In this document: one piece after another, positions 40,798-45,151 of the stretch
Layout: the number at the start of each line of letters is the position of its first letter
How positions within the stretch are numbered: position 1 is the stretch's first letter
Origin: an uncultured Rivularia sp.
Lineage (GTDB): Bacteria; Cyanobacteriota; Cyanobacteriia; Cyanobacteriales; Nostocaceae
Assembly: GCA_963665115.1 (NCBI GenBank)
Contig: OY762007.1
Span: 4,096,001-4,160,000 of the forward strand
Length of the DNA stretch: 64,000 nucleotides
Reading direction: 5' to 3'
The notes under the pieces: generated by a model
Seen by the model: only the letters and a program-made list of their open reading frames with translations
Told to the model about the DNA's origin: nothing
Databases searched by the model: none
Position numbers and translations under genes: made by a program

Positions 40798-41165
40798 ATG
40801 ACTGACGAAAACATCAGACAGATAGCATTTTACGGAAAAGGTGGTATTGGTAAGTCCACTACATCTCAGAATACTCTTGCAGCAATGGCTGAGATGGGTA
40901 AAAGAATTATGATCGTAGGTTGCGATCCAAAGGCAGATTCCACTCGTTTGATGCTCCACTCCAAAGCACAAACAACCGTACTTTCATTGGCTGCTGAGCG
41001 CGGTGCAGTAGAAGATTTAGAACTTGAAGAAGTAATGCTCGAAGGTTTCCGTGGCGTTCGCTGCGTAGAATCCGGTGGTCCTGAGCCTGGTGTAGGTTGT
41101 GCAGGTCGTGGTATTATCACCTCCATTAACTTCTTGGAAGAAAATGGTGCTTACCAAGACTTAGA
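40798..41165 (+). CDS. nifH: nifH segment 1 (codons 1 to ~122)
   Basis: [27 protein letters not shown]; similarity stops after ENGAYQDL. Confidence 0.97.
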
Positions 41166-43001
41166 ATTGATAATAGAAACAGTGCTTTTCTGAAATAGCA
41201 ATCATTAGAACGATTAACCTGGACTCTACATTATTTTTAAATTAAATAACTGCTATTATTCTATTAAAAAAGTGGTTTAGTAAAGCATTTTAACAAAATA
41301 ACTTAAATAAACCACACTTATTTTTATCTTATTTTTATTGCTTTTACTTTAATCTATTTCCCAATCATATTTTTTGGTAAAGTTGATTGTACTTAATTCA
41401 ATTACAATCCTTTTAAGCGAAAATACATAATTGCAAACAAAGAAATTGTATCGTTATATATCTTTTATAAATCACGTTTTTACTTGTTTTTCTATCTCCA
41501 AGCGTTTAATCGTTATCCTTAATGTTTCATTCTCTAACTCTAATTCCTTGACTCTACTTTCAAGTACTTTCATCATGCCTTGTTTAGCAGTTGCTGTATC
41601 AATGGCACTTTTACGATTGTCTAGTGAGAACCATTTTTGATAAGTATTGGTATGCATCTGCACGCTATGACCTAAATTATCTGATGCAGCTTTGATTGGT
41701 ATACCCATTAAGTGCGCTCTAATTGCCCAAGCATGACGCAAATCGTAGGGAGTAAAACCACATTTTGCTTTTTTAAACCAGTTGCAATTAGCTAATTTGT
41801 TAGAATTAAGCCTTTTGTAGGAGATTGAATCTGTAAAATATTCTGCAACTGATGAAGATACTTCTTGATTCTTTAAATCAAATAGTTCAATCCATCTTTC
41901 GTGTAGTGGTAAAACTTCTCTTTCTCCAGTTTTAGCTAATTCATCTACTTTCCAGGTACTGTTAATATTCTCTTTACTTAACCACCATTCGATATTAGGA
42001 CGTAAAAATAACTCACGCGGGCCCTCAACCCGTATGTTGCTAACATCCCATATATCCACCGATATATTTTCCAATTATCTTCAAATTTTCTATTCTTAAT
42101 TCCTCGCTGCTGCCTACCGTTTGCATATTGTTCGTATCCCAAATATGCTGCTTCTATTTGGCTGTCACTAGGAATATTCCTTTTTTGTGCCTTTGGTCGT
42201 TTCAGATATTCGGCTACGTTTATATCTATATCAAAATACTTTGCGAATATTGATATAGAAATAGCCAAATTTCGTCTAGGGTAGCTTTCTGGTTCGGTAG
42301 TATCGAGTATTTGTAAAAGATTATCTGATGTTGCTAGTTGTTCTAAAGGTATGCGTCTTGTTAACTCTCTAAAGTAGTTATTAAAACTGTGTTCGCTTTT
42401 GATTGTGCGCTTGTGGTTTTTGAAGTACTCATTCTCAAATCTTTCTAATAAATCACCAAACGTTTTGACTTCTAGTTTTTGCTTGCTCTTAACTCCCAAG
42501 TATTTATCATTCCATACAAAACTTTTTCTGGCTATTAACTTACCTAATTCGTAAGCTTCTTCCTCAGCGGTTTTTAACCCATCTAAATTTGCTGGTATTC
42601 CCAATGAAATCAAATACTGTTTAGTACCAGTACCTTTTTTATCTTTATCGCCTGGTTTTAGGGGAAGTGTTGCCTGTAAAGCCAAACTATTGTTGTTCTT
42701 CGTCACCTTAGCTTTACACCTAGCTGCTTTTAATCGTTCTTTTAACTGAGCAAACTGCTTTTCAAATTCTTCTTGCATATATTTTTCTCTATGCGCGTCA
42801 TGGTGTTTGATGCCGAAGTATGACCCATCTGTGCTTGGTAGTGGCTGATAGTCAGCAAACCCTGTATCTCTATCAATCATATTTACCTTACTTTTACATT
42901 ACTTTTTTGGCTGTTTAGCACAAGCTTTTACATAGCTGTAATTAGTTCAGGCTAAACAAAAGTATTGTATAACGTTTCTGGGTAAGTAATGAAAACTTAG
43001 A
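41159..43001 (-). mobile_element. nifH excision element 1 (1,836 bp)
   Basis: ACTTAGA repeats at 41159-41165 and 42995-43001; excision restores the frame QDLDFVSY. Confidence 0.92.
41472..42880 (-). CDS. XisA/XisC-type tyrosine recombinase (apparent frameshift at 42019-42024)
   Basis: Paralog of 33759-35159; removing one G and one C restores YGLRPRELF; PYDLRHAWAIRAH, NLGH. Confidence 0.9.
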
Positions 43002-43071
43002 TTTCGTATCTTACGACGTACTTGGTGACGTTGTATGTGGTGGATTTGCTATGCCTATCCGCGAAGGAAAA
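42995..43071 (+). CDS. nifH: nifH segment 2 ([25 protein letters not shown])
   Basis: Manual translation; absent from the ORF track. Confidence 0.97.
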
Positions 43072-43156
43072 TTAGAATTATAAATCTACTTTTTATAATT
43101 TAAAACTTTCAAAAAAAAATATCTAATTTTAACTATAGGATTAATATTTAGGTATT

Positions 43157-43192
43157 AAAAGACCTGCTTTTATTCACAAAAGCGGGTTTTTT
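43157..43192. terminator. Probable bidirectional intrinsic terminator
   Basis: AAAA-G-ACCTGCTTTT-attcac-AAAAGCGGGT-TTTTT hairpin with A and T tails. Confidence 0.6.
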
Positions 43193-43265
43193 AGTTATTG
43201 TTAATCAATCAAAAATATTTATTTATGATTATTCCGAATTTACAATGTCCAATTCCCAAATTCCT

Positions 43266-44711
43266 TTACTTAGTAAATTTTGATAATAATGTTGTGAGTT
43301 GATTTATTTGTGCTTGCTGTTGCTCAATGATTGCTTTCAATTCATCAACTTGAGAATTATTTTGTTGTGTATTTTCTTTGATACAAGATAACTCTGGATT
43401 AATATCGCTAGCAACCATTGATGCATCGCGGTAATGTTTACGACTTACTTCTTCTGAATGCTCGCACCATGCGTTAACAATATGGGTTTCTCGACCTAAA
43501 TCATATATTTGATGAGAAACAAAAGTATGCCGAGTATTATTAACAGGTAAATATTTTGATACTTTTCCTTGCTCTACTAAATCTTTAACTAATCCTATAT
43601 AATGAACGCCTCTAGAGGTTTTCCCATACCATTTTTCGCTCAAAGTTACTTGATGTATAGGTTTACCATTACCTTTAACTGAAAACACGCAATCATTGTC
43701 TTCTCCTTTTTTTAATTTGCTTAATATTTTCCATAATTTACTATCTCTTTTCATGGGAAAGAATCTTATTGTTTCATTCTTAGTAGGCTTGAATATACGT
43801 GATTTACTATCAAAAGATTTTCTGATAATAATTCTTTCCTCATCAAACCTTATATCTTGCCACCATAAAGCTAAAGCCTCACCATTTCTACATCCAGTTA
43901 AAAATTTAAATGCGATTAATGGATAATATTTACAAAGTTTGGGATGAGTTTTAAAAGCTTCCATAATAATTTCAGCTTCTTCCCAACTAAAAGCTTTCTT
44001 TTTATCTAATAATTCATTATCTTCTGTATTTGATTTATCTTGATTTATTTCTTTTATTCTCTTTTTTGCAATTAAAGTCTCTTTTAATCCTAAAAAAGGA
44101 TTTTTACCGATATAAACATCTTTGGCTATAGCGTAACTGTATGCTCTTTCTAAAGCGCTCACAAGAGATTTTACATCATGAGCGTTACGATTTTTAATTA
44201 ACCAATTAAATATTTGATTTGGGTCATATCCTACTTCTTTGATAGCAGAATTTAAATAATTAAGAAATGCACCTTTATAACTATTGATAAAAGTTGTTTT
44301 AGCTAGTCTATGTTCGGAAAATTCACAATACATTTGCCAAATTTCCAAAATTGAAGGATTGGGTTTTACTGTACCTCCACTTTTATCTTCTGAAGCGATT
44401 CTAACTAATCTGATACGTGCCTTCAATCCGTACTCCTCTAAAACCTGTTGATACCTCTGTTCGTTAAATGCACCGCTGGTATCTACAAGCCATCCTAATT
44501 CCAATTCTTGCTGCAACCTCCGAGCAATTTTCATGGCTAATTCTTCATTATCAGAAATGGCTTCTAAATTAATAGACTTCTTAAATTGCTTTCCTGCAAA
44601 ATACTGTTTAGGAAAAACAACTCTAAATCTACCTTTTAAATTTTCAATAGTGACTTGTTTTATATTCTTTTTACTATTATCTGATTCAAGGTACATATTC
44701 TGTATACTCAA
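43266..44711 (-). CDS. Phage-integrase-type tyrosine recombinase
   Basis: FLTGCRNGEALAL, PTKNE, TRHTFVS, EHSEEVSRKHY; N-terminal arm-binding-like region. Confidence 0.9.
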   Translation of the reverse strand: MSIQNMYLESDNSKKNIKQVTIENLKGRFRVVFPKQYFAGKQFKKSINLEAISDNEELAMKIARRLQQELELGWLVDTSGAFNEQRYQQVLEEYGLKARIRLVRIASEDKSGGTVKPNPSILEIWQMYCEFSEHRLAKTTFINSYKGAFLNYLNSAIKEVGYDPNQIFNWLIKNRNAHDVKSLVSALERAYSYAIAKDVYIGKNPFLGLKETLIAKKRIKEINQDKSNTEDNELLDKKKAFSWEEAEIIMEAFKTHPKLCKYYPLIAFKFLTGCRNGEALALWWQDIRFDEERIIIRKSFDSKSRIFKPTKNETIRFFPMKRDSKLWKILSKLKKGEDNDCVFSVKGNGKPIHQVTLSEKWYGKTSRGVHYIGLVKDLVEQGKVSKYLPVNNTRHTFVSHQIYDLGRETHIVNAWCEHSEEVSRKHYRDASMVASDINPELSCIKENTQQNNSQVDELKAIIEQQQAQINQLTTLLSKFTK

Positions 44712-44786
44712 AACAATTTTAAGTATTGCAAAAGTTGAATTTAAACTAATTGCAATAAATTATTATTGAATATATCACTCTCCCGT

Positions 44787-45151
44787 TCCGCGAAGGAAAA
44801 GCACAAGAAATCTACATCGTTACATCTGGTGAAATGATGGCGATGTATGCAGCTAACAACATCGCTCGTGGTGTTCTTAAGTATGCTCACTCCGGTGGTG
44901 TACGTTTGGGCGGCTTGATTTGTAACAGCCGTAACGTTGACAGAGAAACCGACTTGATCGAAACTTTGGCTGCACGTTTGAACACCCAAATGATTCACTT
45001 CGTACCTCGCGACAACATTGTACAGCACGCTGAATTGCGTCGTATGACTGTTAACGAGTACGCTCCTGACAGCAAGCAAGCTAAAGAATACGCTACCTTA
45101 GCTGACAAAATCATCAACAACAAAAACCTAACAATTCCTACACCGATGGAG
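44787..45151 (+). CDS. nifH: nifH segment 3 (codons ~142-263); 3' end lies outside the window
   Basis: [24 protein letters not shown]...LICNSR...[11 protein letters not shown]...TIPTPME, then non-NifH sequence. Confidence 0.96.

Follow-up and report, generated by a model that had tools for sequence, protein, structure and literature searches.

Three recombinase-bearing elements of different enzyme types divide nifH into four pieces in an uncultured Rivularia sp.

The 64,000-base-pair (bp) stretch of DNA analysed here (the window; positions 4096001-4160000 of contig OY762007.1, GenBank assembly GCA_963665115.1, cited below as G000:C1) lies within the one-contig 8.69-Mb genome of an uncultured Rivularia sp. 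and was found to carry a nifH gene divided by three inserts. The pieces, the inserts and the recombinase gene of each insert are listed below, in window coordinates unless G000:C1 is given (nt, nucleotide position in the joined gene; aa, amino acids).

40798..41165, plus strand: nifH piece 1, nt 1-368, downstream of nifB-fdxN-nifS-nifU and ending with the first ACTTAGA
41159..43001: element 1, 1,836 bp as assembled and 1,834 bp as corrected, with ACTTAGA at 41159-41165 and 42995-43001
41472..42880, minus strand: XisA-family tyrosine recombinase (recombinase 1), 468 aa after dropping two extra bases at 42021-42022; motifs GLRPRE, YDLRH and LGHS...Y
42995..43071, plus strand: nifH piece 2, 63 nt from one repeat start to the next
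43058..44800: element 2, 1,729 bp, with the 14-bp repeat TCCGCGAAGGAAAA at 43058-43071 and 44787-44800
43266..44696, minus strand: non-Xis tyrosine integrase (integrase 2), 476 aa; PF00589 and phrog_1; motifs GCRNGE, NNTRH and CEHS...Y
44787..45144, plus strand: nifH piece 3, nt 425-782
45138..64000, running past the window end: element 3, 21,885 bp, with CTACACC at 45138-45144 and G000:C1:4163023-4163029
45213..46595, plus strand: XisF-family large serine recombinase, 460 aa, starting 73 bp past ACACC
G000:C1:4163023-4163141, outside the window: nifH piece 4, nt 776-894, with nifD about 150 bp further on

Removal of the three inserts at nt 362, 425 and 776 results in an 894-bp gene encoding a NifH of 297 aa, which shares 99.66% identity with the intact NifH of a relative (G001) over 297 residues with 0 gaps; the two genes have 12 base differences and 1 residue difference. 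Such gap-free identity excludes chance as the source of the joined frame. All pieces are collinear and on the same strand, and the inserts are non-nested, bounded by direct repeats of 7, 14 and 7 bp, each with its own intact recombinase gene adjoining one end of the element, the far end if the gene is on the opposite strand and the near end if it is on the same strand. Piece 2 encodes 26 residues which, by NifH numbering, include switch II and one cluster cysteine. An initial annotation, made from the sequence alone, had joined one NifH frame by removing 1,836 bp at ACTTAGA and 1,729 bp at TCCGCGAAGGAAAA, and these repeats and junctions (nt 362 and 425) were recovered here, as were the three recombinase types that it named (XisA-like, non-Xis tyrosine integrase and XisF-family). 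It had predicted at least four pieces; there are exactly four, the fourth lying 21,885 bp on with nifD next to it, so that the 3' fragment on whose absence the proposal would have foundered is present. The NifH C-terminus occurs only once genome-wide by motif search, at ~4163040, directly ahead of nifD. The insertion positions had been given as ~362, ~425 and ~788, and the third has to be moved about 10 nt earlier, to nt 776-782, since the frame read as far as TIPTPME had already entered the element: 'ME' is element DNA and the real continuation is LEMDELE. Placing the third break at ~788 via ATGGA was tried and rejected, giving 295 aa, two residues short. CTACACC, the longest word common to both ends of element 3 (nt 776-782), gives 297 aa and agrees with sequencing run X4, from a sister strain which keeps elements 1 and 2, lacks element 3 and runs from 45144 directly into piece 4; this continuity fixes the element-3 site.

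The genome yielded no second intact nifH. Apart from NifH itself, PF00142 gave a single full-length match, which scored 484 bits on the DPOR_bchL model and 217 on the nifH model (cut-off 394), and is a protochlorophyllide reductase subunit; therefore all three elements must leave if NifH is to be made. No extra nitrogenase subunits were apparent among the six PF00148 matches in the genome, in which a HetR-family gene is present. As the initial annotation had supposed, the insertions appear independent: they are separate elements, and each is present or absent independently of the others among relatives.

Element 1 has a G+C content of 33% and a single gene. On a hidden Markov model (HMM) built from other-genus XisA-like proteins its product scored 605 bits over residues 4-465, and it is 46-52% identical to other-genus XisA-like enzymes. 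As assembled, the gene is split into two open reading frames (41978-42880 and 41472-42074); the contig sets of all four runs (4/4) omit two letters at 42021, restoring one 468-aa frame. This frameshift is an assembly error, and the intact frame in 4/4 runs rules out a real pseudogene. The corrected protein is 99% identical to its counterparts in genomes G003 and G007. The ratio of non-synonymous to synonymous substitution rates (dN/dS) of 0.07-0.10 against seven orthologs, a figure from seven pairs, indicates purifying selection. Orthologs of at least 90% identity were found in 7/26 other genomes of the genus and in 0/274 other family genomes sampled (next best 52%), placing element 1 in 8 of 27 genus genomes when G000 is counted. 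In six of the seven other carriers the repeat likewise starts at nt 362 and the element measures 1,809-1,945 bp; in the seventh, nifH breaks at the same position. A quick tree of 35 rows (one truncated row dropped), which gave long-branch warnings, placed recombinase 1 in its own clade with a Shimodaira-Hasegawa-like approximate likelihood ratio (SH-aLRT) of 100, sister to a XisA-like group at only 85. At both ends of the element the 7-bp repeat is the best inverted-repeat centre, with 8 and 11 of 18 arm matches, in a weak scan that had no null model and gave 8-12 of 18 matches throughout. Immediately upstream of recombinase 1, at 42888-42906, TTACTTTT recurs with an 11-bp period; a 6-5-6 repeat scan of the six element ends returned this case only, at the right end of element 1, and the five other ends showed no match.

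When the sites were set beside the surveys, nt 425 and 776 corresponded to the published 428/429 and 781, and nt 362 to neither survey's entries. The 19 nifH rows in the available part of Hilton et al. (2016; PMC4874684), one of which lacks a position, do not include site 362 (365 in Hilton numbering). Table S4 of Uesaka et al. (2024; PMC11249958) has no such nifH break either, and what comes closest there is a stray, incomplete copy (aa 119-261) from a Fischerella strain. No further survey of nifH elements was found in the literature searched, which excluded most subscription papers, and the accessible text of PMC8461463 holds nothing further on them. Relative to these portions of the two surveys, element 1 is new: it is XisA-like, restricted to this genus and placed at a site that neither of them lists.

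Element 2 also carries a single gene, with a G+C content of 29.5%, and its position, nt 425, is the 428/429 site of the survey tables. Integrase 2 matched PF00589 at 38.7 bits (cut-off 27.1) and phrog_1 at an E-value of 1.6e-26, and has the Arg...Arg-His...His...Tyr motifs of the tyrosine recombinase superfamily, with Asn at the place of the first His. It has no detectable resemblance to the XisA-like enzymes over its full length: 0/105 pairs matched at E<1e-3, its score on the XisA-like HMM was -1.4 bits (recombinase 1: 605), and a profile-profile comparison gave a probability of 15.8% over 120 C-terminal columns only, at 15% identity. Among the integrase clusters that a language-model search listed for integrase 2, a single XisAC cluster stood at rank 5, which fits a shared superfamily only, and no NCBIfam model was found that names recombinase 1 or integrase 2. 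The element-2 junction pattern was detected in 3/301 genomes (G000, G003 and G014), with the 14-bp repeat in all of them. The two integrase orthologs are 93% and 82% identical, and dN/dS values of 0.28, 0.12 and 0.10 among the three indicate purifying selection. The classic 428/429 left-junction pattern, on the other hand, was present in 37/301 family genomes and 0/26 genus genomes; 14 of those 37 were fetched, and in 14/14 a XisA-like enzyme, 46-49% identical to recombinase 1, stands beside the right end, while an integrase-2 match occurs in 0/14 of these other-genus elements. With regard to membership of the 428/429 variant, the site of element 2 fits and its recombinase clade does not.

The next relatives of integrase 2 are 40-46% identical (27 loci listed), and no nifS, nifU, nifH or nifD pieces occur in the flanks of those 27, which consist mainly of intact or unmatched genes, with a few truncated ones. 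A tRNA-targeting origin was considered and rejected, as a tRNA (tRNA-Pro) lies within ~1.5 kb in just 2/27 relatives; an Rfam search of 20 of the 27 returned nothing beyond CRISPR repeats. In genome G018, a 1,750-bp insert bounded by CCGGAAGTACT (L070:1348-3108) has one 45% relative as its only gene and interrupts a flavodoxin gene at about codon 9; without the insert, the frame gives 179 aa and matches the gene that is intact in G000. Flavodoxin is not among the 22 interrupted orthologs given in the available part of Hilton et al. (2016; PMC4874684), where the xis-based search used a cut-off of E 1e-20. The integrase-2 class would escape such surveys, because those were searched with xis genes.

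From these sequence comparisons, element 2 is most likely the product of a genomic-island-type integrase that landed independently at the nifH site that in other genera is occupied by XisA-type elements. Taking this further, we lean towards seeing in element 2 a third lineage of recombinases, next to XisA/C and XisF, among the heterocyst gene-interruption elements: a genomic-island-type tyrosine integrase would have landed independently, shrunk to a 1.7-kb one-gene element and come under heterocyst control. It is unlikely that element 2 is instead an old nifH-429 element whose XisA-like gene has been replaced, or that it is excised in trans by another XisA-like enzyme. The repeats do have a common start, TCCG[C/T]GAAG, with a similar stretch ahead of the right repeat (ATATCACTCT), and nine other XisA-like matches are encoded in the genome. 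However, the repeat is 14 bp in 3/3 carriers compared with 7-9 bp elsewhere, the left end of the element is different and has its best symmetry centre ~1.5 bp off, and the XisA-type 429 junction was detected in 0/26 genus genomes. Integrase 2 is moreover under selection, and its 45% relative has a one-gene flavodoxin element of its own.

Element 3 conforms to the published nifH-781 variant in the tables consulted: the site, ACACC and a serine enzyme at the start on the plus strand, at 71-74 bp. Its recombinase scored 492.6 bits on NF041201 (cut-off 375), and orthologs of 69-98% identity follow the same break in 9/9 genus genomes checked. Unlike the fdxN element of PCC 7120, which contains xisH-xisI, element 3 has no XisH match (none in 4141138-4163029; the search did not include XisI), such matches occurring elsewhere in the genome; NIES-4101 is similar in this respect (PMC11249958). 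The cargo in the window (48072-63993) includes a 1,922-aa RTX-repeat/DUF4114 protein, a TPS-domain protein, a C39-ABC transporter, an S8 peptidase and an HlyD protein, a secretion-type cluster which heterocysts would lose from the chromosome.

Interrupted nifH is the usual state in this genus. A blastn search of the 27 genomes with an intact nifH, leaving out short matches to protochlorophyllide reductase genes, found at least four pieces in 14/27 and a full-length match in 1/27; in the 26/27 with no full-length match some assemblies are incomplete. The nifH of G015 is in eight pieces, with breaks near nt 31, 143, 192, 362, 405, 484 and 776; the pieces lie on four contigs (L146, L058, L057 and L147) of a 410-contig assembly, and recombinases stand beside 6/7 gaps. 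The maximum in the available parts of the two surveys is four pieces (PMC4874684, PMC11249958). Further breaks in the genus, near nt 31, 192, 290 and 484 (G020:C305 and others), each adjoin XisA-like genes, and positions 290 and 31 were not seen in Table B of Hilton et al. (PMC4874684). G011 and G014 have overlapping nifH pieces and may be mixed assemblies.

The locus was also compared with contigs from sequencing runs. Single contigs cross the region in X1 (37801-47001) and X4 (37803-45144). Besides the recombinase 1 frameshift, the runs omit 1-2 bases at 38744, where nifS is split in the assembly, and three extra bases at 45876, in the serine recombinase, are absent from run contigs. In run X2 the contigs break at both ACTTAGA copies, and a 53-nt contig joins 41158 to 42995 with no differing letter, at a depth of 24.5 compared with 70.5 for the element (a share of ~26%). 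The relatives without element 1 (10/10) differ from this 53-mer at 3-6 places, and X4 differs at 43002. Run X5 has site 2 filled at a depth of 9.8 and empty at 38.5, and is best read as a strain mixture. RNA run X16 contains a joined nifH that is ~97% alike, comes from relatives and is not attributable to this genome. The junction-spanning sequences called for by the initial annotation were obtained for element 1, in X2 only (1 of 4 runs) and with an ambiguous source, and, in X1-X3, not for elements 2 and 3.

Taken together, nifH is split by three inserts, likely acquired separately, and as heterocysts develop each insert probably leaves as a circle, so that the 894-bp gene is rebuilt; we place the probability of this reading at about 0.88. 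Element 1 would leave through its XisA-family recombinase across the 7-bp ACTTAGA overlap, element 2 through the non-Xis tyrosine integrase inside the 14-bp repeat, and element 3 through the XisF-family serine recombinase inside CTACACC. Recombination by the enzyme between both copies of the repeat would in each case set free a circle and keep one copy in frame. As the repeats are all direct and non-nested, the order of excision would be irrelevant and inversion unneeded. This mechanism follows from the known behaviour of XisA, XisC and XisF (PMC4874684, PMC11249958) and from the reported removal of nifH-429 in Anabaena cylindrica (10.1101/629832). We infer that excision would be confined to heterocysts and that each enzyme would act on its own element.

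Several observations weigh against this reading. An exact GTA-N8-TAC, the NtcA box, was not found upstream of the three recombinases (0/3), and in the motif preceding the second Arg integrase 2 has Asn where the two relatives inspected have Tyr. The X1 and X3 contigs are unbroken across element 1, and the X1-X3 contigs show no junction for element 2 or 3. The X2 junction share of ~26% is far above the ~4% given for NIES-4101 cultures (PMC11249958), and the depth of the X2 nifB contig, at 72.9, is not raised as heterocyst DNA predicts; given this high share and unraised depth, a sister strain without the element may be the source of the X2 junction, and run X5 is an example of such a mixture. 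The runs are unlabelled for cell type and nitrogen source. No circle junction is listed among the run contigs. Missing junctions prove nothing, however, since contigs drop rare variants.

That excision is not confined to heterocysts, but occurs at a substantial rate in vegetative cells, producing mosaic populations and loss of elements, seems quite unlikely. The quarter-depth X2 junction, for element 1 only, and the patchy presence of each element across the genus would fit it, as would the 3-12% edited nifH recorded for A. cylindrica vegetative preparations (10.1101/629832). Against this, the X1 and X3 contigs, under the same organism label, have no branch, and element 1 has been kept across orthologs with synonymous divergence (dS) up to 0.75, which is hard to fit with frequent germ-line loss. 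A dead nifH, with at least one insert staying in place and the strain not fixing nitrogen, would agree with the assembly frameshifts in recombinase 1 and nifS and with the element 2 and 3 junctions unseen in X1-X3; it is considered very improbable, as neither frameshift appears in unchanged form in run contigs, the joined NifH and that of G001 are 12 bases but only 1 residue apart, and the joined NifD (502 aa), NifN and part of NifK have open frames. Although small indel errors do occur in the assembly here, an origin of the interruptions in assembly artefacts or contamination is refuted by single contigs of separate runs that cover the region and by the same elements at the same sites in other genomes.

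Other elements were observed in this genome. A 2,405-bp one-gene element at window positions 33637-36049, with a XisA-like recombinase at 33759-35159 and ATGAGATA at its borders, occupies non-coding DNA ~250 bp upstream of nifB and would split the nifB promoter/leader region; the site is empty in G007, G013, G021, G012 and G020 and filled in G001, and gene-centred surveys would miss such an element. In nifD, a 1,688-bp element (G000:C1:4163519-4165213) occupies the published site 227 and a 29,852-bp element with GGATTACTCCG (G000:C1:4166333-4196195) the published site 1355; the latter has a XisA gene that is frameshifted in the assembly and contains an elongation factor G-like gene, as in the published description of Rivularia. 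Two XisA-like elements (1,837 and 1,850 bp) with repeat starts 26 nt apart in the gene interrupt nifK (G000:C1:4196716-4200436), where one more frame shift, near 4196556, is possibly an error of the assembly. A 1,886-bp XisA-like element with CCACGGT (G000:C1:4203842-4205734) splits nifN, the joined frame of which is open. Three elements in nifH, two each in nifD and nifK and one in nifN would require eight excisions across nifHDKEN. Outside these genes, XisA-like genes occur in a 1,944-bp insert at G000:C1:4217794-4219748, whose host gene is, by its motifs, probably hupS, within a probable coxA (~4667000-4668600) and at ~524000-525300, where the interrupted gene was not found. No nifN insertion is given for the 29 strains of Uesaka et al. 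(PMC11249958) or in Table 1 of Hilton et al. (PMC4874684), as far as the accessible parts of these surveys extend.

At least three enzyme lineages have supplied elements that split nifH, and two unrelated ones have hit one site, which bears on the origin of such elements and on how heterocyst timing is acquired. The one-gene elements of 1.7-1.8 kb are the smallest workable test systems. If the third-lineage interpretation of element 2 is true, it would be a recent, testable case of a mobile integrase turning into a developmental excisase, and the same integrase lineage would have made a second one-gene element, in the flavodoxin gene of G018. Judging from the 26/27 genomes with no full-length match, annotation and nifH amplicon surveys may overlook these diazotrophs.

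Compared with known systems, three elements in nifH is a known arrangement and an ordinary one in this genus; four-piece nifH genes are described for Calothrix desertica, NIES-4101 and LEGE 06105 (PMC4874684, PMC11249958). Calothrix desertica PCC 7102 similarly has three elements and four pieces, with a small tyrosine element of 1.9 kb and serine elements, one of them at 781 (PMC4874684; Uesaka Table S4). Its tabulated sites are 92, 409 and 781 compared with 365, 428 and 781 here (Hilton numbering, offset +3), and, unlike C. desertica as listed there, the present gene involves two tyrosine enzymes of different lineages. The nifH1 of Calothrix sp. NIES-4101 is likewise in four pieces, with its last break where the present gene also has it (aa ~263), and its restoration was shown by reads and PCR; that gene has three serine recombinases and requires inversions, whereas here the pieces are in order on one strand (PMC11249958). 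Element 3 also resembles nifH-781 of Rivularia sp. PCC 7116 in ACACC and in a serine recombinase at the start on the same strand, at 73 bp (published 74), but measures 21.9 kb compared with the 62 kb tabulated for that strain (PMC4874684). Element 2 has its site and the core CCG[C/T]GAAG in common with the nifH-428/429 elements listed for Anabaena cylindrica, Anabaena sp. 90, Nodularia and Nostoc PCC 7524 (PMC4874684), the first of which is reported as gone from ~100% of heterocyst DNA (10.1101/629832). In both, a tyrosine recombinase lies at the element end on the opposite strand, starting ~104 bp from the end in element 2 and 107-109 bp in the published entries. However, element 2 has a 14-bp repeat, 1.7 kb and one gene, compared with 8-9-bp repeats and 5-9 kb as published, and integrase 2 lacks full-length likeness to the XisA-like enzymes of 14/14 nifH-428/429 elements fetched. 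Recombinase 1 resembles XisA and XisC of the nifD and hupL elements (46-52% identity to XisA-like enzymes, YDLRH, LGHS...Y), but forms its own clade, has its own 7-bp nifH site and, in the genomes searched, was confined to this genus. Relative to the consulted parts of the surveys, two things are new here: a genus-restricted XisA-like element at an unlisted site and a non-Xis integrase at the 428/429 site.

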